A program made the position numbers and the translations under genes. A stretch of DNA of 62,039 bases, the filler included, from Dugesia japonica (Eukaryota): NCBI GenBank assembly GCA_001938525.1. It is 5 parts of 5 records of this genome, joined end to end, with 100 filler letters (N's around TTAATTAATTAA, not from the genome) between each part and the next. Parts side by side here need not be neighbours in the genome. Positions count along the whole stretch, not along the records: positions 1 to 14,824 come from MQRL01580506.1; 4 more parts are not named here. One strand, written 5' to 3'. Each line of letters begins with the position of its first letter. The first letter of the stretch is position 1. Below are positions 192-50,271 of this stretch, one piece after another. The notes beneath the pieces are model-generated. The model was not told the origin of the DNA. It was given only the letters and a program-made list of their open reading frames with translations, and searched no databases.

Positions 192-1760
192 CTTTATTCT
201 CTACTCTAGTTCTTATTTCCAAGGTATCTTTAGTTATTTAATTTTGGTCTTGCTCTTTCTCGATATCTTGCTCTTCTCTTGGTTTTGTGGCTTCCTGATT
301 AACTTCTTTTGTTTCTTCCTTTATCTGCAGCATATTTATCATTTTCATATGAGCTTCCAGTTTTGGTTTTTCAATCCGGAATGTAGCAAAATNCAATTTT
401 GTCCCAATTAACAATTTCGGCATTAAATCTGTTCCCAATACTGCATCTACATTGGTTTTCATTACAAAGAATTGGAGCTTTATTGCTTTTTCTTGAAGTT
501 GTGCATTGCATTCTAATGTTCCAATGATCTACACGGTTTCCCCATTAACACATGTTGCTCTGGTTGTATAGGGTTTTATTTCTTTTCTTTTGTTTCGGTA
601 TATATTTTTTATATTCAATACTGATCGGGATGCTCCCGTATCTAAAATTGTTTTCAGTGATTGGTTGTTGATTCGTACTATTAGTGAAAGGCTAAATTCG
701 CCATCTTGAGTTTCTACTACGGCTATTTGCTCATTTTGTTCATATACGTTAGGTTCTGTGTTTGTTTTATCTTCTGGGGTTATTTTATTCTCATTTTGCA
801 CGATTTCTTCTGGTGAGTTTTGTCCTCCATTGAGCTTTAGTTCGGCTAGGGCTTCTCTTAGTCGAGTGATTTTTTGATGATTACGTTTTATTTATTCGCG
901 TAACTGATGGTTTTCCTTGGACAGGATTCCTGCTACCTCTTTATTCCCGGTATTTTCAGCATCTTTATCTTGCTGTATTTGATGCATTTGTACATATTTA
1001 ATTGGAAAACGATTTTCTTCGTAATTAAGACTTCTTCTGGCTTCTGTTAGATTCCTTGGTCCTGCAAGGTCTATTCTGTGTCGACATAGTCTTGCGATAT
1101 GGCCCTGTTTTCCACAGATATAACACACTTTATTTTTTATTTGACAATCTTTAGCTTGGTGCCCTNGTTTGTTACAATTGTAACATTTTTAAACTCGCTG
1201 AGTCTTTGGTAATACTTTGTTAATTCCTCTCAGGTACTTTGATTCTTAGCATGTTCAATTTTGTTGATTCTTTACTTTGGTTCACACTTTGTTGGCTTTG
1301 AGATATGTCAACTTCGTTATCATATCTTCAACTTTGATCTTCTTCTATTCTGATTCTCTTAAGTAGACATTTCTTTTCTGGGTGCCCCTTCTTTCCGCAT
1401 TTACTACAATATCTTTGCCAGCATTTATCCACCTGGTGATTTTTCCGACCACAAACGCTGCAAAATGTATAAATGATTGTACACTAATTGGTACTGTGGT
1501 GAGTACTCACACAATTTTGGCATCTATTTTGCTTATATATTGCTCCTTGACTAACGGTTTTTTTCCCGATAATTAGTCGTTGTTCTGCTAATACTTTATT
1601 CATTGCTTTTGCTTTTAATATAGCCGTAGGATTTATATATCACGTAAGGATTCCCCGTGATACTGTTCTAATGATTTTCTTTGCATATTTCTAAAAAAAA
1701 TATAATTACACACTAATTTACTTGGATAGTGCCAATTGGTACAACGATCTCCGACTCGAT
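192..1760 (-). pseudogene. LTR-retroelement gag-protease remnant (two CCHC knuckles, aspartic protease), cut off by the Polinton end
   Basis: CYNCNKxGHQAKDC (~1145-1185), CYICGKQGHIARLC (ORF 892-1128) and ILDTGASRSVL (ORF 529-801); stops and frameshifts present; no RT before base 191. Confidence 0.8.
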
Positions 1761-3014
1761 TGTGCTTGCTCCAATGAATGTTTGGTACCTGTAACACATT
1801 AATTAAATTTTTTTTTATAATCCCCGTTACTATTTACCCTTTAATCTAAGTCATACACTTGTTAAAGTCATTTTTCATCTCTTCATCCAAACTCGGTTTT
1901 TTTAAATTCGACGTTCTTCGTGGAACTCTTTGTTAGGGCTGCTGATAAATATCTACTCGTTTTATGCTGATTTACTATTACTGGGGGTTCATTTTAAAGT
2001 CGCATTTTAACCCTTTGATGTCCTTCGTATTTATTTTGCAGTAACTGACTGATTTTGTATCTATTATCAATTTTGTACCTTGATTCAATAGCTAATTTTA
2101 TAGTTTGATTTAGTATNNNNNNNNNNATTTGATTTAATAATTGCTTTATTACCTATTAGTAATTTGCTTATGAGATACAATCACTCCGTTGTAATTTACT
2201 TATGTAATATGCTTATGAGAAATATTAACTTTTTGTAATCCGCCCTTTAGATACAATATTTATTTTACTTTATTTTATTTTATTTTATTGTAATAATCTT
2301 TGTAATTTCACTCTTGAACTGTAATGATCTTTATATAATTTTGCTGTCTACAACGTAATATCCTTTTGGAATTTACTCTTGAAATATAATACTTTACGTA
2401 ATTGGCTGCTGAACTGTTATGCTCTTTGTATACCTTGCTGTCTAAAACATAATATCTTTTCGTGATTTCCTTTTGAAATACAATACTTATTTGCAATTCG
2501 CTTCTGAACTGTAACAATCGGTATATAACTTTGTCTAACACGTAATATCCTTTTATAATTTACTCTTGAGTATACCTATTGCCATTTTTATTTTCGATAC
2601 TAGGTGTTTCACCCCAACACTATCATCACGTATATTGATTTTTATATTGTTTATATGTGTAGAAAAAATAGGTAAGTACATTGGATTTTCAACAATTATT
2701 TGAACTACTTTATCATCCTTATGTAAGTCTATTCATACTGATTTAAATAAAAGAACATTAACACTACCAACCATAATAGTTTCAACAATACTTCAATAAA
2801 AAAAGTCAATTCCTGACAAAGACAAGGTCGAAATATCGAATTGTTATCCAATATCAATAAATAAAACCNNNNNNNNNNNNNNNNNNNNNNNNNNNNNNNN
2901 NNNNNNNNNNNNNNNNNNNNNNNNNNNNNNNNNNCGCAATAATTGCAATTGTAAAACATAGAAATGTTGTTCAGATTTTAATTGGTTTTGAGTTGTTTAT
3001 TATTATGATTTTTT

Positions 3015-3360
3015 TTGTAGAAATTATATTATGACATTCCTTTATTAGAAATTATTTTATACAAATTTTTTATAAAATTATTTTATTAAAATTTCATTAC
3101 GAAATCTTCTTATTAAAAATTATATTAATTAAATTGTTTTAATAGAAATTATATATAAAAATGTTTTATTAAAATTTTATAATAAAAACGTTTTATGAAA
3201 ATTATTTTGAAAATATTTAATTAAAAATTTTTTTTAGTATCAAATGAAATCTATTTCGTGAAAATATTAATTTAAAAAATCTATGAAATTAAATTTATTC
3301 TGGAAATTATTTCATGAGTTGAAATATAATCTATGAAAATTACTTCTTGAAAATATTAAA
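3015..3360. repeat. Degenerate AT-rich tandem repeat (~15-18 bp, aaattattttat-like)
   Basis: Recurrent agaaattatattat / agaaattattttat / aaaattattttatt units. Confidence 0.5.
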
Positions 3361-3753
3361 ATGATATAATTTTTAATGATGAATAATGATTAAATAAAAA
3401 TATATTAATTCAGAAAAATGTTCACAATACAGAAATTACTATACGAATGATAGCTATAAAGGTGATTGTCATAGTAAAATTGAAAAATACTATGGCCAAT
3501 ACGTTTAAATGGGGAAAAAATATTATATTTGACCTACATTAGGACTTAAGATATAGATACATATTTAAATTTCTATAGTTTGCATTCAAGTCACAGCACA
3601 GTTTAGTGAACTTAAGAAAATTTTATTAATAAAGGAAATCATAGACAGTGATGTACAAGCTCCTTTAACTAAGAAAAAGAAAAAGATGAAATTGTCGTTA
3701 TAGATAATGAAAATGTGAACGAATTAAAATTTCAACGGAAAAAAGATATTTTT

Positions 3754-4286
3754 TTAATTTCTATCTCCATCATTTATAATATCTTCAAACATCGCTCCAC
3801 CAGTTTCATTTTGATTTTTTCTTGATTTCTTATTTTTAAAATTATTTAAATTTGAACTGGGATTACTTGAAATGGAATTACTTTTTAATTTTGTTGATAT
3901 AAAACTATTTATTTTGTCAGTTAAAGTATATTTGGGTAAAACTTCTATCAATTCAAATGTATTAGTTTTAATATTAAAAACATGATCTCCATAATTATTT
4001 TTCATAAATTTATTTGTTTGTTCATTAAATAAATATTTTACCCTTTGATATCTTTTTACTTTTGGTTTTAAATTTAACTCCCTTAAAGTTTTATTTAAAG
4101 CTTGAATTGTAATTCCCATTTCTTTAGCAATGTCTGAATCTTTAAAGTTGGTTTTTTAAAACATAATTCTTGATATTTTTCAGCTAAATAAATTTTCTGA
4201 GATTTAATAAATAATGTTGAATCAAATGAATTTGCACAATTAATTGAATCAATAACATTAACACTCAAATCTTTTATACTTTCCAT
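3754..4286 (-). pseudogene. Polinton accessory gene with helix-turn-helix, one frameshift near 4150
   Basis: ORFs 4095-4286 and 3754-4119 join to give ...LCFKK/NFKDSDIAKEMGITIQALNKTLRELNL, an HTH-like pattern; lies downstream of PolB on the same strand. Confidence 0.55.
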
Positions 4287-4530
4287 TTTCTTTAGAGAAA
4301 AAATAATAATTTATAAGTAGAATTATATTTGAGATTAAATTTTCAATTACATAAACAATTATATATGGAATTGCAATTGGAATTAAACAAACAATTATAC
4401 AAATGATAATAATTAAAAATATAATTAAATTTTTTTGTTGTTCAAATATTTTATTTAAGTTAATATAATTTTTTGCAAAACTATACATTTCTTTAGTATT
4501 CATCTCTTTAGTATTTATTTCACTAGTCAT
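4258..4530 (-). CDS. Small membrane protein (Polinton accessory gene)
   Basis: 90-aa ORF with AAAATG start and a long hydrophobic stretch (LIIFLIIIICIIVCLIPIAIPYIIVYVI); tightly packed with neighbouring ORFs. Confidence 0.45.
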   Translation of the reverse strand: MTSEINTKEMNTKEMYSFAKNYINLNKIFEQQKNLIIFLIIIICIIVCLIPIAIPYIIVYVIENLISNIILLINYYFFSKENGKYKRFEC

Positions 4531-4648
4531 TTTATATAATAATTTATTAAAGTGTTTGTTTTGTTTTCTTATTTAGTTTTCTGATTGTATCTTTTATTTG
4601 TTTATTTTTAATATTATTATTTTCGATTTTACTTTTAAGCTTTTCATT

Positions 4649-4900
4649 TTAAATTTTAAGATTTTCATTTTGGCACTTGGCATTTTCTAAGTCACTTTGT
4701 AATTTATTAATTTTATTATCAGCTAAACTAATTACTTGTTTATATAATCCAAACTTTGGGTAAATTTCCTTTAAAACTATACTTTGTTCTTTTAATGTGA
4801 AATTAATAACTTTGGTATACTCTTGTTTTAAATAGTTCTTAAATTCTGTATGTTTTTTTGCATCTTTAATAATCACACTTATGTTTTCTCTAGTAGCCAT
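4649..4900 (-). CDS. Small hypothetical protein with coiled-coil-like C-terminus (Polinton accessory gene)
   Basis: Likely start ttaaaATG at 4900 (MATRENIS...); directly downstream of PolB. Confidence 0.45.
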   Translation of the reverse strand: MATRENISVIIKDAKKHTEFKNYLKQEYTKVINFTLKEQSIVLKEIYPKFGLYKQVISLADNKINKLQSDLENAKCQNENLKI

Positions 4901-5125
4901 TTTAACAAGTTGAAAAATGTGCCCGCTGGCACAGGTTTTATATTTAATAAGCAAGAATGGGTCCCATCCTATTTCTATTTTGAATTCCTCATTTTTACCC
5001 TTTAAAATCCCAAAGGGTCCCGTCCCCAGATTAAAATTTAATTTTAATTGTTACCGTGGTCACCACTTTATTTATATTAAACAATTTTCCCCTAATAATT
5101 TATCTAATCTTAAATGCCATTCACT

Positions 5126-8100
5126 TCAAGTTTCACATTTAAATTTATTACCATGGGGCCAAGTCNNNNNNNNNNNNNNNNNNNNNNNNNNNNNNNNNNN
5201 NNNNNNNNNNNNNNNNNNNNNNNNNNNNNNNNNNNNNNNNNNNNNNNNNNNNNNNNNNNNNNNNNNNNNNNNNNNNNNNNNNNNAATTTCTTTAGGGTTA
5301 CTTAAAACTTTATCATAATCCTCCATTCCTAATTTATTAGTTTAAGAAACACCTTTATGTTTGGTTTCTATATTTTTTTATTTTGGGATCCACAATCTTC
5401 AATTATATAACTTTTAGCTTTTATAAAATTACATTTAGTTATTACTGAATTTGGTTTTTCATCTTTCATCTGGAATAAATTATTTCCTAATAAACTTGTT
5501 ACTTTATTTAAATTCTCTTGTTCTTTTATTTCTAAAAAAATTGAATCAGTATCTGAATAATGAATTTTGTATTTTCCAGGAATATTTACATTTATTTGAT
5601 TATAAATAAAGTCATAAATTACTTCCTTTGCATATTCCAAAAAAGTAAATCCAATGTATTGAAACTTGTTATATTTTAATTTAGTTTTATAAAGATGAAT
5701 AGCCGCTGTTTTAGCTTCTTGAGGATCTGTTTCTCCAGAAAATATTTTACTTGATTTAAAGTTTATCTTTGAAGTGAATTTCTGATAATCTTTATCATTT
5801 CCAANNATTTCAACATTACACCTGTTTCTTATATTTTCTAATGTTTTCCCGTAAAAGGCATTATTTAATAATTTAAAGAAGACATCGCCAAAAACATCGT
5901 TTGTTCTTTTAGCTTCATTTCTCTGATCGATATTAAATTGAATGTAATCCTTTAACCAAGGTTTTGTAGTCATTTTATATTTAGTATGAATTTTTTTTTA
6001 TTTTCATTCTTAGAGATAAATACAAATCTAATGTTGATCCTAAAATAACATAATTTTGTTTATCAAATTGATTCAATGTTAATTCGATATTTTTCTTACT
6101 CAACTTTTTATCAAAAGATAATTGATAAGGTACTAACATTTCTTTTGTAACATTTAAAGGATCTGGAGCTAATGGAAAGTATTTAGTCTTTTAATGAATC
6201 TCTTTTGGATATTCCAAATCAACTTCATAAACATAATTAATTTTATCTGTTGATTTAATATATTTTAAATCCTTACATTCATAGATTTCACCTGTTGGTA
6301 ATGGTTTTGTCATACAACTGGCATACAAAGAATTCTCATCTNAATATTTTAAAAATGTTTCTTCAAAATAATCATCTGGAAGATATTGTTCAGGATTTCA
6401 AAATATATTTAATAAATCATCTAATTGAGCATTATTTATTTTTTTATTTTTTCTTTTCCAAAAACTTGTCTTTCTTCGCAAACACCAGAATAACCACCTT
6501 TAACTCCTCTTTTAATTTTAATAAATCTATCATAAGTTGCTTTTTGAGCATATTTTAATTTTACTTGAGTAAATTTCATACCTGCCTTCCAAGTTAGAAC
6601 TGGAGCTGAATAACAATAACTTGGATCAATTTGATAATTATTTAAACATGTTTCTCTAAAACTTTCAAAGTAATCAGCTAAAATAATTACATCTATTTTC
6701 ATGTAATGTAACATGTATTCCCAAAGATTATTGAATTCATTAAAATCTTGTAAAAATTCATTGTATTCTTGATCAGTTATTTTCTTTTGTCTTAATATAT
6801 TGAAAAAATCTTTTTCTGTTGGTGGATGGTTTCTTTTTAATAATTCAATTACTTCATTTATATTTTCTCCTTTTAAATATTCAAAAGGAAATGGAATTTT
6901 CTTCNGANCTAAATTAAAAGATTTTAAATGATTATATTTTCCTGATTGATTTAACGTTTCCCCCATTTTCTCAANTGAAGTAAGAGTACACATTCTTAAT
7001 GAATCTAAAAATCTAATTGAGGGTTCTTTAGGTTTTCCAAATTCAAAGGAAATGTAAACTTCATCACTATGAGAAATTATTTTTCTAACTTCTTTTGGAT
7101 ATTTTATTAATTATTCTTTAAAAAATAAATGATTATCATATCCAGACGCATTGTGAAAGTAAAAACGAATAAATAAATTTTTTATCGATTTATCTTGTAA
7201 ATTACATTTAGAATGTGAATAACCTCTAAATTCACCATTGAAATGATCGTGATCAATTACTGGAGTTTCAGATCCCATTTCTTTATCACAATATGTACAA
7301 TTTTGATTATTAAATTCTGGATGGTTAGTTCCAGTATAAGTTTCGATTAATTTATGTTCTTTAATGTCTTTTAATTTGTTAATAAGTCTATTTAAAAATT
7401 CAAAGAAATCTTGATGAATTTTTTCTCCATAAAATTCTTTGTATTCATTTTGAATTAAATTTTGATATTTACTTACTATATAAATACCAAGAGAAAGTGG
7501 TTTTTGTTTTCTGGTTGATGAATTAGTCCAACTTTCAAAGTCTCCATAAATTACAAAAGGTATTTTATTTTTGTAATAATAATTCTGATAATAATAACTA
7601 TAATTTTTAGAAAAAACTACATTACTAATTTCATGATTAATTATTCTTTTTGATGATTAATTAATAAGTCTTTGCTATAATAACAATTCATACATCTANT
7701 ACACAAATGATTTTTATTTCTATTTTTTGTAAAAAACACTTCTATATCTCTAAATAAAATATAATGGTTTTTACAAACTAATAAATTACATTTATTTTCT
7801 TCTGGTTTGGGTTTAGTTTCATAATGCAAAATATACAAAGGTTCAAGTTGTTTAGACTCGGTTTCAACAAATGCATTTATTTTCCATTTTATTTAACTTT
7901 TCAAATTTTTTTACATTACAAATATGGACAGGGAATTTAATTCCAAATGTATTTATTTCATCTAAATAAGGAATATATTTTTCTACTCTAGTTGGATCAC
8001 TACATATATGTTTATGGGCTAAAAGTGAATAGAGAAAACATTTTTCATCTTTATTTTTAATATTAATTACACCTTGTTTAGAAAAAGGTAAGTTTCGATA

Positions 8101-8890
8101 AGATTATTTCCCTCCAGCTAAAGATTGATATTTTGAAAGTTCAATTTTATAATAAACTATATAATTTAGATTCCATACTGGTTGACTTCTATCTTCCTCT
8201 TTAATGTATCTTTGAAGTTGATTTAAAATATCATTAACTTTATCATTAATTTCACTTGCTAATGTAATTTGTTTATTTCTTGAATACGAATTAAAAATTC
8301 TTTCGACTTCTTCACCGTTTACATCTTTATTATAATTACAATTTACACTTATTCGGACAATAATCTTTTTTCCATAGTTGAAATATTTTGTAATAATTTC
8401 TTGGATTTCTTTCTGAAATTCCTTAATTATTTTTACTTGTATTTTTAAACTTTCAACATTTCTAGTTAACTCAACTTTACTTTCTTTAATATATTCAATT
8501 TCATAGGTTTTTGGTACATTCTGAAGATGTCTCAAATTTCTGGATTGAAATCAATTACTTCTTCTCCAGGTAATTCTTCAAATAATATTTTGTTGACCAT
8601 TTCTTTATGTGACTTTGAATTAAAATGGGCTTTTGCATGAGTTTGTCTTGAAAACCTTTATTACAAACTTCACAAAACAACGAAACCTTCTCTAAATTTC
8701 CACAATCAGTAGAATTCAAATGTTCCGTCAATTACCTCATAGTTCTAAAAGTTTTTAGAAATTTTGAACAATTAAATCTTGCTCTGTCTAAAAGACAACA
8801 TCTTGATTCAATATGACCTGCTAATCCTGATTTATTTTTAAAAACCTTTTTACAAAGATTATTTCGGCAAATCAACTGATTACTAACCAT
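5126..8890 (-). pseudogene. Protein-primed family B DNA polymerase of a Polinton, near full length, with frameshifts and stops
   Basis: N-terminal C2H2-like fingers; VINIKNKDEKCFLYSLLA; PFVIYGDFE (ExoI); DHDHFNGEFRGYSHSKCNL (endonuclease-VII-like insert); FHNASGYDNHLF (ExoII); YMKIDVIILADYFESFR (ExoIII); FFKLLNNAFYGKT (motif B); YSDTDS (motif C); KAKSY; C-terminal TWPHG. Confidence 0.92.
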
Positions 8891-10658: not shown

Positions 10659-12547
10659 ATGGTTCAGAAGCTGCCAAGCTTTCATATTGGAGATGATTCT
10701 GCAAAACACCATCAGGAATTTAATAACCACATTCTTAATTTAAAGATCGAAGATGGTAATGAAAAAATTAGATATTTTATTAATTCCTTAGAACAAGATA
10801 TCCAATATGATTTTTTTTCTTTACCAGATTACCAGAAGGTAAAATGTCACTTTACTTTGTGAACTAATAAATTTATAGAATTATACAAAGTTACAGATTC
10901 GAGGATTTCTCCTATTACCAAACTTTTACAGATTAAGCAAAATGAACTCTCTTTAAGAGAATTTATTACAAAACTGAGAGTTTATTTATTTAAAAGACAA
11001 ATAGAATTGAACAATGAGGACAGAGAAAAGACTTTAATATTCGCTTTTTTATTTGGATTGAACGATAAAAAAGTGGCAGCAGCAGTTCAATTTCTTAAGC
11101 CAGAATTATTAGACGAAGCTTATAACTTTGTAAAGAAAAGAAGTTAAAAACGAAAGTAACAAAAATCTGAGAAAATTAAAACCCAACATGACTTATCAGA
11201 TGAAGTTCGTTTACTAAAACCGGAGGGAACAAAATTGGAACAAATGATAGCCAGGCTATCTAGAGATATAAAGAACGGAAGATATAGATCTGTAGTGAAC
11301 ACAAGGACTAATAATGAAAGTCGNNNNNNNNNNNNNNNNNNNNNNNNNNNNNNNNNNNNNNNNNNNNNNNNNNNNNNNNNNNNNNNNNNNNNNNNNNAAA
11401 AACTAATTATGTGTAAAAAATGCAAAATGGTTGGTCATTTAGATCAATTTTGCAGAACAAGAAATATGAAAAACTCAGATATATTAATGAAAATGATAGT
11501 GAAAATATGGACTCTGGCGAAATCAGATTGATTTCAACGAGATCAGAAATATCCAGCACGGAGATCAAAAACGCGAAACAAAAAAAGGTAATAAAAAATA
11601 ATTGTTATACTAAAGAAGTTATGAATTTAGATAAATACATCGACGGGCAAGAAGCCATAACTAAGTTTAAAAATAAAGCAAAAACACTTATTTCAGAGAA
11701 TCACTCAGAATTTGCTCAAAATAAGTCTTTGGTTCAAGTGAGAATAAAACAAAAATGGGTAGCGACACTAATGATAGTGGGCAGAATCAAATGTACTAGT
11801 TTATAATTTATTATGTGGATTGAGAAAAAGTAACAAACAGATTAAATTTTTAAAAGAACAGAAAGAATGTACTGTGCAAACGAATTGCCATGAAAATCAT
11901 GGGGGTTGCGAAGATTGAACTAGTAATTGNNNNNNNNNNNNNNNNNNNNNNNNNNNNNNNNNNNNNNNNNNNNNNNNNNNNNNNNNNNNNNNNNNNTAAA
12001 TCGATAAAAACACACAGAATTTAAATTGTGCCACAGGATGACTTTATATATATAAGGAATCAAGCTATACCATTTGTATCAAATGTTTGTGATGAAAGAG
12101 CGGAAAACTAACAAACACCAATCTTTGGAGTCACGATTCAGGTGCTAGAAAAAACGAGACTCAATATTGATCTTTAAGCATCATTTTGGACGAAACAGTA
12201 GTTTTAAAAAAGTATAAAGAATATTTTGTACGTGGATCAGTGGACTGTGATGAATTCAAAAGTAAAGAAGGAATCTTTGTAGGTTTTAAAGATAAACTAG
12301 CAAATTTAGATATATTGTCAGCTAATTCGATAGTGTCTGTTGACAACGACGGACTTTACAATTCATAGATTCCGAAAGAAAAATTTATGAAGGCACAAGA
12401 ATGTGTAGTTTAGAAATCTGGGAAAAAAGCGAGTTCATCAGAAATGTTTATTTAGATAAATTAGAGGTGTTTCATGTAAACGGATTGATTGATAGAATTG
12501 AAAAAGAAGACGACATTCCTTTAGAACATAAAAAAAGGTTAAGAGAT
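10659..12547 (+). pseudogene. Gag-protease remnant of an LTR retroelement, cut off by a Polinton terminus
   Basis: Gag-like LLQIKQNELSLREFITKLR; knuckle CKKCKMVGHLDQFC; frameshifted DSG-AESNV protease motif near 11773; no RT before 12548. Confidence 0.7.
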
Positions 12548-12846
12548 AGTAGATGTATAAAGGCGCAAATGAGCACCCCACCCCCAGGGCCATAAATTTT
12601 TTTTTTTATAGGCACCCACCCCCAGGGGGTAAAAAACTAATTTTTTTTTAGTGATATTTTTAGTGATATTTTTAGTGGTGGGTGATAATAAAAAGTTATA
12701 AAAAAAAGTGGTAGGGTAATAAAAAAATGTTATTTAGTAGTTTTTTTTCACTTACCACCCATCGTTTGTAGAATGTAGAATGTAGAATGTCGCTTGTCGC
12801 TTATCGTTTGTAGAATGTAGAATGTAGAATGTCGCCTGTCGCTTAT
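12548..12846 (+). mobile_element. Polinton-type left terminus with subterminal repeats
   Basis: Starts AGTAGATGTATAAAGGCGC. Contains two cacccacccccaggg boxes, three tttttagtg(ata) units, and a 42-bp unit x2 (12761-12844) built from gtagaat/gtcgctt heptamers. Confidence 0.65.
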
Positions 12847-12867
12847 TTTTTGTCGATTATATTAAAA

Positions 12868-12960
12868 TTAGTAGCCAAATGGTAGAGTAGTTATTCCATC
12901 TTCTAGAATAAATCTTTTATCATCAAATGAAGTTAATGCTTGTTTATCTTGTTTAGTTTG
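12868..12960 (-). pseudogene. C-terminal 30 aa of a Polinton pPolB (deletion stub)
   Basis: Hand translation QTKQDKQALTSFDDKRFILEDGITTLPFGY*, the characteristic AL.S.DDKR.I..DGI.TLP.G terminus. Confidence 0.85.
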
Positions 12961-13371
12961 TTAATTTAATGGTTTTTTAATATCTCTTTCAATAATTTTT
13001 AAAAAATCTTTATTAGGAATAGAATTATAATTCTTTAATTTAATTGGTTGTTCAACTTTAATTGATTGCTCAACTTTAATTGGGTTTTCTTTCTTTTTAA
13101 TCTTAACTTTACTATTAGATTTCAATTGTTGTTGTTGTTCATAGTCTAATTTATATTTATTAAAGACTTCTTCATTATCCTTTGGGATGAATTTTCCTTG
13201 CTCATTTCTTTCTCTAATAATAATTTTCTTTCTCTTGTTATAGGGAATATTAAATAAATTTAAATATTTTCTTACAGCTTTCTCTCCAACATTATTAATT
13301 TTACAAAAATTGCTTACTGAATTATTTTTGAAGTCGTAATGATATAAACTCTTAATAAACTGCTCATCCAT
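12961..13371 (-). CDS. Basic HTH-like DNA-binding protein, 136 aa
   Basis: Open ORF with SVSNFCKINNVGEKAVRKYLNLFNIP pattern; homologous copy at 22657-22840. Confidence 0.7.
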   Translation of the reverse strand: MDEQFIKSLYHYDFKNNSVSNFCKINNVGEKAVRKYLNLFNIPYNKRKKIIIRERNEQGKFIPKDNEEVFNKYKLDYEQQQQLKSNSKVKIKKKENPIKVEQSIKVEQPIKLKNYNSIPNKDFLKIIERDIKKPLN

Positions 13372-13391
13372 TTTTAGTAGTAAAAAAATTT

Positions 13392-13597
13392 GACCATAGA
13401 CCTTATGACCATAAGACCATAGACCTTATGACCATAAGACCATAGACCTTATGACCATAAGACCATAGTCCTTAAGACGATAAGACCTTAAGATGATAAG
13501 ACGATAAGACCTTAAGACGATAAGACCTTAAGACGATAGTCCTTAAGACCATAGACGATAGACCTTAAGACCATAGACGATAGACCTTAAGACGATA
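13392..13597. repeat. Tandem array of 27 units of 7-8 bp (GACCATA / GACCTTA / GACGATA) with higher-order structure
   Basis: gaccatagaccttatgaccataa x3, then alternating gacgataa/gaccttaa, then gaccttaagaccatagacgata-type units. Fills most of the divergent intergenic space. Confidence 0.95.
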
Positions 13598-13634
13598 TTT
13601 TTATTTTAGTCAACCCAAATTAATTATTAGTAAA

Positions 13635-14285
13635 ATGGCGAAACAAATTTTAGGATTGAATACAATTTATAACACAATATGTGATTTTAGTAATTTGAAA
13701 GAATTTAGTATAAGAGAGATTGAAGATTTTACTAATAATGAACTAACAGGGGAAAATGCGAACAAATATGTTGGAATTATTAAACAAATTTATAGTGAGA
13801 TGGAGAAAATGGGAGAAAGTAAAGACAGAGAAGTATTTAAATCTTTAATAAGTATAATAGTTTCAAAATTCTGTTCTGATTCATGTAAAAGTATAATAAT
13901 AGAAAGTTTGGATGAAGAAAATAAAATATATTTAGAACATATTAGAATATTAGAAGAATCATTTCAGAAAGAGAGAGATGAACATAATAAAGTATTAAAG
14001 AAGTATAATGAAGTATTAAAACCAGAAGTTGTTGAATTACAAAAAATAAAATTAAGTTTAACAACACATAAAGGAGTTGATTGTGATAAGATTTCTTCAG
14101 ATAAGATTTGTAATATTGCAAGTGGTATTTTATCAAGAAGAAAGAATTTGGGAGATAAATTAAAAAGAGAGAATGTACCTGATGAATATAAAAAAGAAAT
14201 ATTAACCATCTATGCATGTGGAAGTCAGTTTCCTCAAATTAATGTGAAAGAGTCAAAAGGGGACAAAAGAGGTAAGTCAAAATGA
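13635..14285 (+). CDS. Hypothetical helical/coiled-coil protein, 216 aa, upstream of the capsid gene
   Basis: Uninterrupted ORF in stop-rich DNA, taaaATG start, ends 16 bp before the MCP ATG. Confidence 0.7.
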   Translation: MAKQILGLNTIYNTICDFSNLKEFSIREIEDFTNNELTGENANKYVGIIKQIYSEMEKMGESKDREVFKSLISIIVSKFCSDSCKSIIIESLDEENKIYLEHIRILEESFQKERDEHNKVLKKYNEVLKPEVVELQKIKLSLTTHKGVDCDKISSDKICNIASGILSRRKNLGDKLKRENVPDEYKKEILTIYACGSQFPQINVKESKGDKRGKSK

Positions 14286-14301
14286 GTTCTATAGAAAATA
14301 G

Positions 14302-14824
14302 ATGGATTTAGATTTCAATATTAATTTTTTACACAATCAAACTAAAGTGGATTTGTTGAAAATATCACCAACAGCTGGATCGATAGTAAATTTAAACAAG
14401 AATNNNNNNNNNNNNNNNNNNNNNNNNNNNNNNNNNNNNNNNNNNNNNNNNNNAAGAATGGTGATATTTCATTTCAATCATTACAAAATACTAATCCTTT
14501 AGATATAGGAAATGCAAAAATGTATTTCAGGATTAGTTTCAAGAACTCAAAACCAACTACTACATTAGAAAATGATTTCTTTCCAGCTTTATTTTCACAG
14601 ATGAGATTAAAAATAGGATCAACTTATATAGAATCTTTAACTTATCCAGATGTAGCTTCTACAATGATTAACTTAGTTTTGATTGATAAAGCTAATGAAA
14701 AATCATATCAAGCATATGGATGGATACCTGATTCTATTAAAGAAAGTTCAAAAAAGAGACAAGAATTATATTTAAATAGTTATGAAGGATATTATCCTCT
14801 AAGAAATATATTTGGATTTTTACA
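14302..14824 (+). CDS. Polinton/adintovirus-like major capsid protein (double jelly-roll), N-terminal part, runs into a gap
   Basis: Joining across the N run (aagaat overlaps on both sides) gives LLKISPTAGSIVNLNKNGDISFQSLQ...TLENDFFPALFSQMRLKIGSTYIE...GWIPD...YPLRNIFGFL, matching the NxF..LFSQ..L and PL..IFGF motifs of Polinton MCPs. Confidence 0.8.
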
Positions 14825-14868
14825 NNNNNNNNNNNNNNNNNNNNNNNNNNNNNNNNNNNNNNNNNNNN

Positions 14869-14880
14869 TTAATTAATTAA
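14869..14880. other. Artificial scaffold linker TTAATTAATTAA inside an N gap (also at 24519, 34395, 50216)
   Basis: Identical six-frame-stop 12-mer centred in N runs four times. Confidence 0.9.
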
Positions 14881-14924
14881 NNNNNNNNNNNNNNNNNNNN
14901 NNNNNNNNNNNNNNNNNNNNNNNN

Positions 14925-15109
14925 TTGTGTGCAAAATAATTCCAATTAAAAATTGCATAATAAATTTAATTGATGGATTAAATTTCAGATGATGCAAAAA
15001 CATCACAGATTAAGATATCAAATTACCGATAATCGCACTAATTACATCACTAATCGGCGGGGGGGGGTACTGCATGTGTGCTGTTCTTTACTGCTAATAT
15101 CTATCTACT
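14925..15109 (-). mobile_element. Polinton-type right terminus inserted into an ATPase gene
   Basis: G-run and tgcatgtg (shared with 156-164), ending ctatctact (rc AGTAGATAGATA); abuts the ATPase coding sequence. Confidence 0.65.
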
Positions 15110-15257
15110 CATGCTCTTCATCTGCACCTCTATGCCAGTATATTTTGTTAAATTTTGATTTAAATAAATTAGATTTTAGTAATTTGCATACAAATAAGGG
15201 TTTTCCGCTACCACTTGGACCAACAATTTGATAATCAGCATCATTTCTCAACTTCAT
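15110..15257 (-). pseudogene. A32/FtsK-like packaging ATPase, 5' fragment
   Basis: MKLRNDADYQIVGPSGSGK[P]LFVCKLLK...FNKIYW: an N-terminal Walker A in the usual Polinton ATPase context; truncated at 15110. Confidence 0.75.
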
Positions 15258-16259: not shown

Positions 16260-16434
16260 TTAAAACAAAAATTCCCTCTTCAAAAAATAGGTAAAAAAAG
16301 AAAAACCAACCCAAAAATCATAGCCCCAAAAAACATAGCCTAGCGTAATGTGTTAACGAGCACCCCCGGGGAGGGGAGGTCCCCCGCGATAACTGCTTTA
16401 AAAGGTGGGGCCTGTGCGCTACTATCTCCCTACT
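16260..16434 (-). mobile_element. Polinton-type right terminus
   Basis: Ends gtgcgctactatctccctact (rc AGTAGGGAGATAGTAGCGCAC); homologous to 50-191 and to the start at 24055. Confidence 0.78.
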
Positions 16435-16762
16435 AAATAACTAGTTTGAATTGATTTATTAGTTAAAATCTGATGTAATTGCTTAAATTAACTGAAAACT
16501 CCAAAAATCTCATTTTTCGGACCTAGAAAAAATTCACTGATTTTCAGCAGATTCGCCCCATTTGACAACTACTGATTTTATTAACAAATCATATTATTTG
16601 ATTTACAACCAATCATATAAAATTAAAACGATTTATAACCAATCTTTTCCTTTAAAAACTAAAAGAACCTATCAAACAGTGTGTATGTATGTATCTTAGG
16701 AAGTATAAAAACAGTAGCTTAAGTAAAATAAATCTGTTTTACAATTCAAACTTCTTCAAAAA

Positions 16763-17035
16763 ATGCAACAATTAGAAAGAGAAATTCAGAAATTAACTGA
16801 AACAATTAATAGTGGATCCGTTGGCGATATTCAATTCCTATCGGAGCTAGAAAATGGTCTAATGAGTAAACATGAATATGTTGAACTCATAGTTCGAACA
16901 ATATTCATGAAGAAAATAAAGGATAAATTGAATCAACAAAGAAGAATCAAATATGTTTCAATGATAATATTATCATCGGGTCTGTTGTATTATTTCTTTA
17001 AAATAAAGTATTTATCTTTTAATAATAAATTTTAA
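16763..17035 (+). CDS. Small protein with C-terminal hydrophobic segment; diverged tandem copy with a premature stop at ~17202-17450
   Basis: TATA-like gtataaaa near 16703, caaaaaATG start, aataaa near the stop; second copy has gga changed to tga. Confidence 0.5.
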   Translation: MQQLEREIQKLTETINSGSVGDIQFLSELENGLMSKHEYVELIVRTIFMKKIKDKLNQQRRIKYVSMIILSSGLLYYFFKIKYLSFNNKF

Positions 17036-17585
17036 CTTAAACAGACTTTTTGCTTTTTTCAATTTTTCAAAAAAAAAATTTTTAAAAAAAAATTTTAAAT
17101 AAAAAAAATNNNNNNNNNNNNNNNNNNNNNNNNNNNNNNNNNNNNNNNNNNNNNNNNNNAAGTAAAATAAATCTGTTTTACAATTCAAAATTCTTCAAAA
17201 AATGAAACAATTAGATAGAGAAATTCAGAAATTAACAGATACAATTAACAGTTGATCCGTTGGCGATATTCAATTCCTAACAGAGCTACAAAATGGTCTA
17301 ATGAGTAAACATGAATATGTTGAACTCTTAGTCCGAACAATATTCATGAAGAAAATTAAGGATAAATTGGAACAACAAAGAAGAATCAAATATGTTTCAA
17401 TGATAATATTATCATCTGGTCTGTTGAATTATTTCTTTAAAAGAAATTAATGTATTTATCTTTTTATAATAAATTTTAATTTAAACAGACTTTTTGCTTT
17501 TTCAAAAAAAAAAATTTAATTAGTTATGTTGCTACAACAATTTTATATATAAACAATTTATTTTACCGTTTCATATAATTTGAAA

Positions 17586-22656: not shown

Positions 22657-22840
22657 ATGTCTATCGAATGAGTTATAAAAAAACTATAATTTTACAATAG
22701 AAAGTGTTGATGCATATTATCGGAAAGCTGGAATAACAAGTAAAACATTACGCAAATATTTTTGTCAAAATAATATTCCATATAATAGATCAATTATCAA
22801 CGTCCAATACATAGTAAATTTCGATAAAAATAAAAGATGA
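22657..22840 (+). pseudogene. Decayed paralogue of the 12961-13371 HTH gene
   Basis: NYNFTIESVDAYYRKAGITSKTLRKYFCQNNIPYNR aligns ungapped with HYDFKNNSVSNFCKINNVGEKAVRKYLNLFNIPYNK (13 of 36 identical by hand count). Confidence 0.7.
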
Positions 22841-24054: not shown

Positions 24055-24474
24055 AGTAGAAAGATAGTAGCGCACTGGATCAACCCCTTCCGTCAAGGTC
24101 AAATTTTTTAAAGGTCAGTGATCTAGTATACTCGATTCTGATTGGCTGAAAATTCAAGGTCAAAGATATTTAGTGTACTCGATTTGCATTGGTTGAAATA
24201 ATTCAAGGTTGAATTTTAAGATCAGATTGGTTTAGTTAACTCAGTTCTGATTGGTGTAATATTTCAAGGTCGAGTAAATGTAGGTCAAGGTTAAATGAAA
24301 GTAGGTCAAGGTTATTTCCATGACAACTATCATCTGGGTAGACTTCATATTCATATTTCCCGCGCAGACAAAATACTTTTTGTTTTAATTGGCTGATGGA
24401 TTTATTTATTTTTGTTTAAATTAATTGATTTTGATCATTTGTTTAAATTTACTGATTTTTCAGATTTTTATTTA
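24055..24474 (+). mobile_element. Polinton-type left terminus with TCAAGGT and ATTGG repeats
   Basis: Starts AGTAGAAAGATAGTAGCGCAC immediately after a (TA)n(TG)n tract; nearly matches the rc of the 16434 end. Confidence 0.75.
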
Positions 24475-24574
24475 NNNNNNNNNNNNNNNNNNNNNNNNNN
24501 NNNNNNNNNNNNNNNNNNTTAATTAATTAANNNNNNNNNNNNNNNNNNNNNNNNNNNNNNNNNNNNNNNNNNNN

Positions 24575-34350: not shown

Positions 34351-35138
34351 NNNNNNNNNNNNNNNNNNNNNNNNNNNNNNNNNNNNNNNNNNNNTTAATT
34401 AATTAANNNNNNNNNNNNNNNNNNNNNNNNNNNNNNNNNNNNNNNNNNNNTTTCTTTCATCTTTCCGCTTATTAATAATATAATATTTTAATTAATTAAT
34501 TAATATTTTATTTATTTAGGTTTGCTCAACCCCAACGTTATAGACATTACTCAAATATACACATCCATACAAATACTTGTAATTACATTTATAATACATA
34601 TTTACATTATTTAGCATAAATTATTATCATTTTTCTTTTATTTTACAGGTTTCAAATAATATCATATTTTATTGGAATGTAAATTTACTCAACCCTAACA
34701 ATTAAATACATTAAAACTTGCTAACGACAGAATAAATACGTATTTACCTAGAATAATTAAGATTGATTTTCATGTGATTGATTTCATTAGATTATGATAT
34801 TTAGTTTTTTACAAAATTTTAATTGTTACAACAGTACTAATTTACTTCGGATTGTGGATGTGTCGATTGTAGTCAGTCGTAGAATTAATGATCTTGTTTT
34901 ATTTATTTAATTTTCTTATTTTTGCGCAAGAAAATTTTAAATAAACTTTGAAACAAGACAAGATCCTAATTTTAGATTGTATAACTAACTGTAGATCAGT
35001 TGAAGAACAAAATATATCAGATAACACTAATTAAGGAAAATTGAAAACAGGATTATCAAATAGAAATTAATATTTTTATTTGAAATAATTTTGAAATAAA
35101 AAAAATAGATTAAAATATTAGTATTATTAATATTATTA

Positions 35139-44622: not shown

Positions 44623-44806
44623 GTGAATAAATTAGGTGTCCCAATCATCTATCCACAACTTTGATAGGTCTTGGAAATCATAATATTTGCTAAAATATCT
44701 GCAAATATTTGAAGTAGCGAGAAGAAACAAGTAAGTTTTAATTGTTTATTTCCCAATGAGGAGGTGTTCTATCTTGCATGACTATGGTTGTCATTTATGC
44801 CACGAG

Positions 44807-45844
44807 CTTCAAAATTTGGATAAAATTGGGTTTTAAGCATTTCTAAATAGCAAATACTGTCAATCGATTTTTTGAAGAAAAATTTCGATTGCATGTAAAC
44901 CAATGATTTTTTTAACAGTAAACTTCCTAGGTAAAACCTTGCTGAAATGAATTATGAATATAAATCCCGAATTCAATTATATTTGAAATATTTCGTTCTG
45001 TGATTAGTTTATTGTCTTGCTTTTTCTGAATGGATTTAGATATTTAATAGTTCATCATTAAATTTTGCTAAATAATCATACTTGTTCAATAAAAGAGAAT
45101 TCGTTTCACTGGTGTTTTAAACTTTGAATTGACTATTCAAGGATTTACAAGGAAAGAAGTGAGATTTCCTCAGAATTAATAAGTGATGAGAGTATTACAC
45201 GTGGAATCTCGCTTCTTTGTAAACTTTAATAGAAGTGCTAGACAACTTTTATACTTTTCTGATTGTGTCTATAATATGCATATAGCTCAGTATATGTTTA
45301 AGAAGGGTATAATTTAGAATGTCGAGAGAAATGCCAAAGTCTGAAGTTCATATGTCGCTGACCGGTAGATCCTTCAGTGTACTTTACCCAACAATCCACC
45401 GCTACTGTGGTACTCGATAAAAGAATATGGTTGCGATACGAAACCACGATGGATGATTCAGAATTGCCTTATTAATTCTGAGGAAATCATATTACTCTCC
45501 TTCTAAATCCTTGAATAGTCAATTCAAAGTTTAAAACACCAGTGAAACGAATTCTCTTTTATTGAACAAGTATGATTATTTAGCAAAATTTAATGATGAA
45601 CTATTAAATATCTAAATCCATTCAGAAAAAGCAAGACAATAAATTAATCACAGAACGAAATATTTCAAATATAATTGAATTCGGGATTTATATTCATAAT
45701 TCATTTCAGCAAGGTTTTACCTAGGAAGTTTACTGTTAAAAAAATCATTGGTTTACATGCAATCGAAATTTTTCTTCAAAAAAACGATTGACAGTATTTG
45801 CTATTTAGAAATGCTTAAAACCAAATTTTATCCAAATTTTGAAG
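44807..45844. repeat. Long inverted duplication (377-bp arms 44807-45183 and 45468-45844, 284-bp spacer) of a dead Tc1/mariner transposase segment
   Basis: Arms are near-exact reverse complements; translation gives TIDSICYLEML...VMQDRTPPHW (QQDGAPPH relic). Confidence 0.9.
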
Positions 45845-48557
45845 TTCCGTATTTATTGCACAATGAAAGAGGGAATATCCGACCGTGGGACACGGAGGTC
45901 TAAAGACAATTTAGAGATGTTATTGATCGCTATGTAAATTTAATCATAAATGTATTAAGTAGTTATTTTGAGTTTCTATAAATAATTTTAAAATTTTGAT
46001 AAAATTGACCTTTTAGGGGTAGCGCAGCACATTTAATTACATGAAACTTTCCCGGAGCATCAAAACTAATTAATATTGATTCCAGTAATTAATATTGATT
46101 TCAATATATCAAATTTTTCATTTATACATAAAGTAATTGTAATTATTTGGCGGAGCACCTGAGACAAAGTTGCGGAGCACTGGTTAAGAATTAGTGGTAC
46201 ATACTGTAAATATCTGCATTTGATTAATTACATTTGTATAAAATAACCTAACAATTGCTTGGAAATTACAAGCTCTGTAAAGTTACTAGTGTCTAAGATT
46301 TGACACTTTGACTAGAAATTATTTTGCTATTTTCTTATTTCCTTAATAATTTTTATTTTGCCAATTAATTTTATAATTTTCTGGCCATTATTTTCCAAAT
46401 CTGATATTTTCGCCTCTTTTATTTTAGATTTATAGTTTCTAATGTTTTATATTTTTTGTTGATGATTTTCATAGTCGCCTTTGGGTTTTCTACTAATGTT
46501 TCTTTGGATATTCACATTCTAGCTTGTGGGAGACTTCTTTGTTTTTAGTATTTAACAGTTTTCTTTGAATTATAGACTTAACATTCGTAGCTTTATTCCA
46601 TTTCTTTTGATAACTACATTTTTATCGGATGCCTGCCATGTTTTCCTTCATTATATAATGATTTCAAATTATAATTTTTATAACTATTACTAAATATGTA
46701 TTATTATTTTTCAGTTAATACTTTCTGGTGGTTCTTTGAGAAAATTTTACTGAGGATGGAACATCATCTTTCTTTATATAAAATAATAATAACTCCAAGT
46801 TCATATGTAATTCAGAAATATATTTCTTTAGTTCGGATTCAATAAATGGTGCTTTAAAATTCTTGTTTCTACACCAGAGTATCTAACAAATTAATGAACT
46901 TTATTTAGCATTTTTTGCTATAACCGTTCATCATAGCAGCATTGTCACTTATATTTCTTTAAATGAAATTCGAATTAAAAATGCAGTTACTAACCAGTTT
47001 ATTACAATTTAACTATTTATAATATAGAGATAAAAATAACATTTCAAAAACAAATACTCTAAATGATACAAATTACGTTGACAAAGTCCATCAGTTATTA
47101 CTATACATCAATCATTTCCACTTAGATTGACAGTTAAATCAAGTAAGATTAAGTGCTGTCATAATGCAATTAATTATCACTTTGGTGATATTATAAGTGA
47201 ATCAAAACGAATATAGAGCAATGATAATACCGTACTATTAATTAAAATATTCGATATTTAATTCTCATTTACTTTATAAATTTATGAGTCATGCGAACTG
47301 TAAACACAAGCTTCTCATTAAAACAATTTTAGTAGGGAAAATTAAGAAGTACTTAAACAAATTATATTTTTAATTCAAATCAATATTTGGTATTGTTATT
47401 ACACAAGAATTCATCATTTTAGAACATTGTGGCATGACAATACAGAAACAAATCACTTCAAAATTCAGATACAATCTTTATCTATATTTTCTGCTTCGTC
47501 AATCTTGACACAAACTTCCTATTAATTACTTTATTATATGCCACCACTTATTCAATAATTAAAAACTAATTTCTCGAAAATAAAGTAATACATCGAATTT
47601 AATCTTTATTAGTTGCGTAAAGAGCAAATTTGCTGAATTTTTCTAATAGTAATTAAATTGTGTAAACCTATCTTTTCAAAGAAATGACCTTGAAAATATT
47701 TTTAATTTCATAATCAAAATTTACACTGAACCTTATTAATTTATTAAAATATCGAAAATCGAGTTGGTATTTAATAAAAGACTGGTTTCAACATATCAAA
47801 AGTATGGGCAAAATCTTTCAGATATGGTTACTGTTGAAAATTAACAATAAAACGAAAACACAAATGTTCTTATCAGATTCAATTTAAACGGAAAATGTTT
47901 CGTTTTATTGAATTTCCCGACGAGTAATAAAATGCTTGCAGAATCTTAGAAGATTCTTTAAATTTAGAATTTAATATACTTGTGATACTGATTAATAATT
48001 AAAATTACAATGTTATTGCTAACATTTGATAAAGTTATTAGAGAATTAATGCCAATCGTAAACTTTTCAACAAATTAATTTCTGATGGAAATTTCAAAAC
48101 ATTTAATCGTTTACAATAAATTTGAATAATCTATGATTTAAAACAATCGTATTAAATTATACCATGAAAAGTGAATAAACAGAAAATTTATGAAAATAAT
48201 AAAACTGAAATATTTTCAATGGCAATTAAAACATTAGAACTGTTTTTCATTAAAAAATTAAATTAATAAAAATATACTCTTTAATTTTAAAACTCTAACA
48301 TTTTGAATTTTTGATTAAAAAACAAAGGTTTGATAACATTTAGTTATATATTTCAAATGATAAAATAATTATTTATTTATTATTTTATTAATAATGTAAA
48401 AATAATAAAATTTTGTATATAAAACTTAATAATCTTTATTAATAATTTCATTGTTTTAACCAGTCAATGTGAATGTTAAGGCAGCTACATAGAATTTAAA
48501 ACATATCTTATTTTTAAAAGTTTTAATCAATTATTTTACTTTTAATATCAGAATAAA

Positions 48558-50090: not shown

Positions 50091-50271
50091 TTAATGAAAT
50101 TATTATTATTATTATTAATATTATTATTATTAATATTATTATTATTAATATTATTATTATTATTATTATTANNNNNNNNNNNNNNNNNNNNNNNNNNNNN
50201 NNNNNNNNNNNNNNNTTAATTAATTAANNNNNNNNNNNNNNNNNNNNNNNNNNNNNNNNNNNNNNNNNNNN

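Follow-up and report, generated by a model that had tools for sequence, protein, structure and literature searches.

A 27-unit repeat array between divergent genes of a decayed Polinton/Maverick-like element in Dugesia japonica, a candidate operator for a neighbouring helix-turn-helix protein

A tandem array of short direct repeats was found to fill most of the spacer between two divergent genes in a stretch of Dugesia japonica DNA (62,039 nucleotides from assembly GCA_001938525.1, hereafter the window), an AT-rich eukaryotic sequence crowded with decayed mobile elements. On its features taken together, the element that hosts the array is a decayed Polinton/Maverick-like element, with a gene for a 136-aa helix-turn-helix (HTH) protein on one side of the array and a 216-aa ORF followed by a major-capsid-like gene on the other. 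We propose, with a probability of about 0.4, that the array is a lineage-specific operator, grown by slippage within a divergent promoter, and that the 136-aa HTH protein binds it.

The array extends from position 13392 to 13597/8, carries no strand assignment, and consists of 27 abutting head-to-tail units with the consensus GAC[CG][AT]TA(A/T), each 7 or 8 bp long (mean 7.65). An exact GACCATA (A), GACCTTA (B) or GACGATA (C) is present in 24 of the 27 units, and the other three deviate by one base (GTCCTTA twice and GATGATA once). The units follow the order ABAABAABAABCBCCBCBCBACBACBC, with a higher-order period of 23 bp at the left, 16 bp in the middle and 22 bp at the right. The spacings between successive B units were 23, 23, 23, 16, 24, 16, 15, 22 and 22 bp, and no constant helical phase was kept. 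Positions 1, 6 and 7 are invariant in all 27 units, while positions 4 and 5 vary; this pattern is as expected of a constrained site and is equally expected from the recent duplication of one unit. The initial annotation, made from the sequence alone, had counted 27 units and described 23-, 16- and 22-bp higher-order units that shift along the array, and both statements were recovered when 13392-13597/8 was read unit by unit. Its three unit variants hold for the 24 exact units and leave the three one-base deviants unmentioned. A CRISPR array was rejected here as it had been there, since the units abut and there are no unique spacers between them.

The array covers 206 of the 263 intergenic bases between the two divergent ORFs. 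It ends 20 bp from the ATG at 13371 on the minus strand and 37 bp from the ATG at 13635 on the plus strand, in agreement with the earlier description of an array that makes up nearly the whole intergenic region. Since so much of the distance between the divergent starts is taken up by the array, a promoter of either arm must overlap or abut it. Stops are present in all six frames of the array, which is non-coding. Its GC content is 39% with 7 CpG, and that of the surroundings is 20-26%. The spacer contains upstream AUGs, nine on the minus strand and four on the plus strand.

The array was confirmed to be real, neither a product of chance nor an assembly artefact. There were 24 strict units within 207 bp of the array, whereas other 207-bp stretches of the window held no more than one each, and none of 100 base shuffles exceeded three per 207 bp. 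Outside the array, the whole window holds six strict unit matches, and the TRF score of the array was 247. A 132-base contig over 13439-13570 was identical to the window in both DNA runs, which come from two studies and of which one, X1, may be the window's own sample. Another X1 contig (13564-13689) joins the array to the 216-aa ORF. Furthermore, variants in which a unit changes between 7 and 8 bp were observed at 13420, 13429, 13552 and 13574, in one to three other contigs per site. Because the core contig is identical in the two runs and unit lengths vary in other contigs, the array is taken as genuine and slightly variable between copies.

Several other properties of the array sequence were monitored. 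Against Rfam, two matches of about 22 bits were obtained versus gathering scores of at least 80, and an RNA gene is thus unsupported. A special hairpin was considered on a z value of -6.75 relative to dinucleotide shuffles and was rejected, because 20 of 200 shuffles of the unit order were equally stable. A bacterial promoter scan gave 9 hits compared with 6.8 +/- 2.7, which is chance level, and the method is not applicable to a eukaryote. When an 18-base pattern of the array was searched against viral contigs, one contig matched once, inside non-repetitive sequence. The RNA runs were uninformative on expression: X13 gave 0 reads, and the 11 reads of X10 all stayed below 99% identity and lay outside both the array and the conserved HTH segment.

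The left neighbour of the array is the 136-aa ORF (12961..13371, minus strand), which points away from the array. The predicted protein has an N-terminal helix-turn-helix followed by an RxR[DN]xxGx[FY] segment. A word-indexed search returned no homologue of it, and a full HMMER scan returned 26 at E<=0.001; the first 66 residues are common to all 26, and residues 3-66 are conserved. When the profile of the family was searched, 11 proteins were listed, 7 of which were new. The 20 family representatives examined are all unnamed or annotated as 'hypothetical' and come from short public contigs, and by these sequence comparisons the 136-aa protein would belong to a new small HTH family without a name. 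AlphaFold2, run with the alignment, gave a pLDDT of 91-98 over residues 1-60, with helices at residues 3-11, 19-26 and 30-39 (pLDDT >90), and many HTH domains were matched when the model was compared with known structures (Z 4-5.3), none standing out. The HTH assignment is established at the level of the model, and the earlier identification of this neighbour as an HTH gene is upheld by the confident model together with the conserved family.

The type of HTH is less firmly placed, and a MerR/Xis-like protein is our lead. The MerR-like DNA-binding domain of RacA was the top match, with a weak E of 0.03 in the PDB profile search and a Foldseek E of 0.98; Xis, including Pukovnik Xis (E 1.8 and 5.7), and BldC (E 8.6) ranked lower, and IS21 transposase HTHs scored like RacA, Xis and BldC. 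No Rep family was found among the best 25 Pfam families listed for the 27-member alignment, or in PHROGs. The family profile also picks up the N-terminal HTHs of IS21-type transposases, which are a source of false matches. The two metagenome loci among the matches listed were both IS21 transposases, and the one locus from the genome scan was IS21-type. Of the viral scans, one gave two loci without a match to the family profile, one of them being a Mu-like prophage, and the others gave no locus. An HTH-looking ORF at 3754-4155, at the distal end of the element that carries the broken polymerase, was also rejected as a member of the same family (hhalign 5.7%).

The element that hosts the array starts at an AGTAG-type left terminus (12548..12568, plus strand), recognised by its AGTAG-N4-ATA-N3-G layout and by a break in contig depth. 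The terminus sits in a high-copy gypsy-like relic, and across 12548 the summed contig depth changes from 1000-3000 on the relic to 10-36 just inside the element; two listed X1 contigs of the relic stop at 12547. Ends of the AGTAG-N4-ATA type were found at 191, 12548, 15109, 16434, 20341, 21722 and 24055, that is seven compared with a shuffle mean of 0.015, the AGTAG-N4-ATA-N3-G pattern being derived from the same ends that it counts. These seven ends lie within 24 kb, belong to several different families and are in some cases nested, so that the region has the look of a Polinton-rich graveyard. A broken protein-primed polymerase (pPolB) at 5368-8550 matches DNA_pol_B_2 with an E of 0.001. Since the element starts at 12548, this polymerase belongs to another element.

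Next to the terminus, the region 12569..12760 (no strand assigned) contains runs of G/C and short AT-rich repeats, with a 12-bp repeat at 12645-12677. Judged by its position, it is probably a terminal inverted repeat; blastn against the other ends in the window gave no similarity. The element's own end contains no units of the array. A partner for the 12548 end was not found within the window by blastn or by pattern. No right end bearing the 6 bases of the left flank, as a 6-bp target-site duplication would give, was present in the window, in which the element is cut at 14825-14924. No integrase ORF was found in 12548-14824. An A32-like fragment (E 0.033) lies beyond the 14825-14924 gap and is part of the piece that ends at 16434. 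The element end at 15109 is inserted in this A32-like ATPase gene (14925-15254) of the other element, the one with the end at 16434.

A second array (12761..12853, no strand assigned) lies between the terminus and the left-arm genes; its 7-bp units form a higher-order period of 42 bp (TRF periods 7 and 42), and its autocorrelation at 7 bp is 0.74. A variant with a 55-base deletion in this array was present in run X3. A common origin of this array and the main array was rejected, as the two share an 8-mer only, which was matched by 7.8% of 1804 random stretches.

Between the second array and the HTH gene is a polymerase-like remnant of 30 codons (12868..12960, minus strand), recognised by its translation and by contig depth. 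These codons come directly after the 136-aa ORF stop, without a change of frame, and end in ...FDDKRFILEDGITTLPFGY-stop, which we take to be the C-terminal signature of Polinton protein-primed polymerases. The 30-residue tail had no match in the Pfam, PDB, phage and plasmid sets. At 12906 the depth was 4000-5000, with 43 and 48 contigs, and the tail is thus highly repeated in the genome. Moreover, 11 X1 contigs part from the window sequence at 12962, the very place where the 136-aa ORF stops, and by eye they continue in frame without a visible stop over the letters shown. Both runs have exact contigs across the junction itself, which reach 30 bases into its short side, one under the bridging rule.

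The simplest reading of these data is an internal deletion that broke at about 12962 and removed nearly all of the polymerase, together with whatever separated the polymerase from the HTH gene; the 3' end of the 136-aa ORF may have been cut by the same event. A left arm that held nothing beyond the HTH gene was considered and dropped, given the contigs that leave at 12962 and the 30-codon tail. Because the polymerase-like tail follows the HTH stop in frame, the left arm is read as the replication arm, which, as far as its sequence tells, it seems formerly to have been. In view of the internal deletion, the parent element probably had the array at its centre, with a replication arm and a capsid arm running outward from it in opposite directions. 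The initial annotation had set a replication side against a capsid side. This layout is likely right on account of the polymerase-like tail; the pPolB at 5368-8550 does not bear it out.

The right arm starts with the 216-aa ORF (13635..14285, plus strand), obtained by ORF prediction. It has no homologue and matched no Pfam or PHROGs family; its atlas scores were at most 0.84 (low recognition), and part of it is multi-copy in the genome. It is followed by the 5' part of the major-capsid-like gene (14282..14824, plus strand), seen in translations, which is broken across reading frames and by an N gap and ends at the 14825-14924 gap. We presume from motif resemblance that it encodes a major capsid protein. 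The fragment gave no profile or structure match in Pfam, PHROGs, the PDB or viral contigs, and no relative came up when viral sequences were scanned with the fragments of the capsid-like gene and of the polymerase. The capsid-like gene is high-copy, with a depth of 1000-3700 at 14288-14403.

Whether the array is shared by related elements was approached through a second family member and through contig depth. A decayed member of the HTH family was found at about 22679-22837 on the plus strand (E 4.6e-9; tblastn E 0.001), with no match in 15 of 15 control stretches. This relic is old and broken, and no tandem array was present in the 300 bases upstream of it. A capsid-like start downstream of it on the same strand (E 0.03) was rejected, as it was gone with composition correction. 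At 85% likeness, the summed depth was 40-85 for the array, 430-1200 for the HTH start and 1000-3700 for the capsid-like start, where summed depth is no copy number and sister arrays made of other units escape detection at that likeness. The data lean towards most sister sequence being without this array sequence, and arrays of other units in sister families are possible. The initial annotation had named sister elements as a check on its reading; the second relic without an array and the lower depth of the array lean weakly against conservation in related elements.

With the operator proposal, the array would be the cis-control region between two outward-pointing gene modules of the Polinton/Maverick-like element, and the spacer would act as their promoter. 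The HTH protein, encoded 20 bp away, would bind DNA, and specifically the 7-8 bp units, cooperatively and head to tail, with a protomer on each unit or on every two units, like BldC, Xis or P2 Cox. Bound in this way, it would repress its own, replication-side transcription and determine how active the promoter on the capsid side is. Slippage or unequal exchange would have built the array and would still be reshuffling it, and the exact sequence would be specific to this subfamily. This mechanism would apply to the parent element, as the present copy is deleted and decayed.

The accessible parts of two papers describe proteins that could work in a comparable manner. Domains of the BldC type form head-to-tail oligomers on direct repeats whose number varies (PMC5859096), and RdfS, Xis and P2 Cox form filaments on repeats and also regulate promoters of mobile elements (PMC11963761). 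The MerR/Xis-like lead is attractive because BldC, RdfS, Xis and P2 Cox coat direct repeats and regulate promoters. According to the same partial source (PMC11963761), BldC and RdfS place about one protomer per helical turn; the array has its 7.65-bp mean period and no constant phase. The present system resembles BldC, lambda and Pukovnik Xis, P2 Cox, RdfS and RacA in having a small HTH protein with a basic R-x-R-x-x-x-G-x-F segment, whose gene stands beside short direct repeats in the control region of a mobile element. It differs from them in that the element is eukaryotic, the similarity is below significance, the spacing is 7-8 instead of about 10 bp and the units number 27 instead of 2-4. 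RacA, moreover, binds as a symmetric dimer, unlike the head-to-tail binders. A further extension is doubtful: a phage-style switch in a family of eukaryotic Polinton-like viruses, in which an Xis/Cox/BldC-like HTH protein of their own polymerises on a long, family-specific operator array that separates replication from capsid genes, the length and order of the array tune the choice between silent integration and virions, and protein and units co-diverge, which would keep co-resident families separate.

A close rival of the operator reading, if a somewhat unlikely one, is a near-neutral minisatellite, in which a 7-8 bp word was expanded by slippage in the spacer of one subfamily while the element replicated itself, is tolerated without being needed, and the HTH protein binds elsewhere, for example at the ends. 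Minisatellite turnover normally leaves variants in a polarised order and higher-order periods that hold only locally, and the array has both. Like minisatellites in transposons, it also shows polarised variants, shifting higher-order periods and differences in unit length between copies. The same element holds another 7-bp array, at 12761-12853 and unrelated to this one, short tandem motifs occur at other ends in the window, few sister contigs match the array, and the second HTH relic is without one. However, the array adjoins an HTH gene and fills the divergent intergenic gap almost exactly, stopping 20 and 37 bases before the start codons and leaving little room for a promoter, and decay alone would not favour its raised GC and CpG content. 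It is hardly probable at all that the array is a general satellite of the host that came to lie in the element by chance. Nested repeats are densely packed in the region, which would suit such an origin, but in both DNA runs the depth of the array was far below the 1000-5000 of the adjoining high-copy repeats, no second copy of the array is present in the 62-kb window, and contigs join the array directly to genes of the element.

As an enhancer array of multimerised sites for a host transcription factor or a co-infecting large virus, the array would drive both arms, and the HTH protein would be incidental; we regard this as decidedly unlikely. As candidate host-factor words the array has seven CGATA on one strand, and as candidate words for the virus it has DTAAG, 14 times on the plus and 10 times on the minus strand. 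The end at 24055-24474 carries six CAAGGTY words, two of them TCAAGGTCA, and five ATTGG words. We take TCAAGGTCA to be an NR5A/FTZ-F1-type nuclear receptor site and ATTGG to be a CCAAT-box, and the presence of these words suggests that these elements collect arrays that look like host-factor sites. Nevertheless, the array contains one canonical WGATAR site only, no DTAAG was seen by eye just upstream of the neighbouring starts, and repeating any unit multiplies whatever word it holds. The 24055-24474 terminal repeat is, in its own right, a possible built-in host-factor promoter.

It is very unlikely that the HTH protein binds the array as an origin, packaging or tethering signal, whether iteron-like, similar to the adenovirus A repeats or RacA/centromere-like. 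RacA, the best weak match, anchors chromosomes, which would suit tethering. Protein-primed replication starts at the termini, but the array is internal, and its distance of about 845 bases from the end is owed to the deletion. The suggestion in the initial annotation of an origin or packaging array is not supported, for these reasons. Plasmid iterons are about 17-22 bp long, helically phased and located beside an AT-rich unwinding site. They share with the array that direct repeats adjoin the gene of a putative cognate binding protein, but the units here are 7-8 bp, their higher-order spacings range from 15 to 24 bp without a constant phase, and the adjacent gene does not encode a Rep. The earlier term 'iteron-like' is therefore withdrawn, the units being too short and without constant helical phase. 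There is also no special hairpin, the shuffled unit orders folding as well. Adenoviruses, which are relatives of Polintons, package by means of seven A repeats bound by IVa2 and L4-22K, according to the accessible part of PMC4346872; as in the array, short sites recur within non-coding DNA, there of a related class of viruses. In the same partial source (PMC4346872), the A repeats are dispersed TTTG sites near the genome end, whereas the array consists of abutting units between central modules, and the TTTG core is absent from 27 of the 27 units.

Among described elements, the nearest to the proposed layout is the Maverick type of Rhinella marina (cane toad), in which the modules point away from each other, as given in the accessible part of PMC8097293. 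The present element resembles that type in its apparent AG-type end, polymerase-like remnant, capsid-like gene and nearby A32-like ATPase, and in two modules on opposite strands that diverge from the middle. It differs in its internal deletion, and neither an integrase nor a second end nor a target-site duplication was found. The accessible portion of PMC8097293 describes no HTH gene and no array between the modules in the Rhinella marina-type elements. A literature search, with supplements, Repbase reports and most subscription papers outside its scope, returned no paper that describes Polintons with an HTH gene or with an array between genes; the Polinton literature searched, as far as accessible, describes gene content and ends and no control elements. 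The array bears on how integrated Polintons regulate their genes and come to make particles. If the operator reading is true, a virus-like transposon of a eukaryote would carry a control circuit of the kind known from bacteriophages, formed by an HTH protein that it encodes and the adjacent operator array, and a function could be given to the HTH family of 26 members. Should the array be no more than a minisatellite, the gain would be a modest one in annotation, namely a small HTH family that is new and a deleted element whose two modules face outward.

Some further repeats were observed elsewhere in the window. The gaps at 14825-14924, 24475-24574, 34351-34450 and 50172-50271 each consist of 44 N, a 12-base spacer with stops in all frames and another 44 N, and this padding creates false repeat families. 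At 2315-2569, a 95-base repeat is present in 2.7 copies and adjoins a gypsy-like relic. Two 290-base copies at 16721-17449, 93% identical, flank an N gap and contain a short ORF with a hydrophobic tail; they may reflect a duplication or an assembly echo. At 44804-45847, inverted repeats of 380 bases, 97% complementary and 284 bases apart, resemble a miniature inverted-repeat element.
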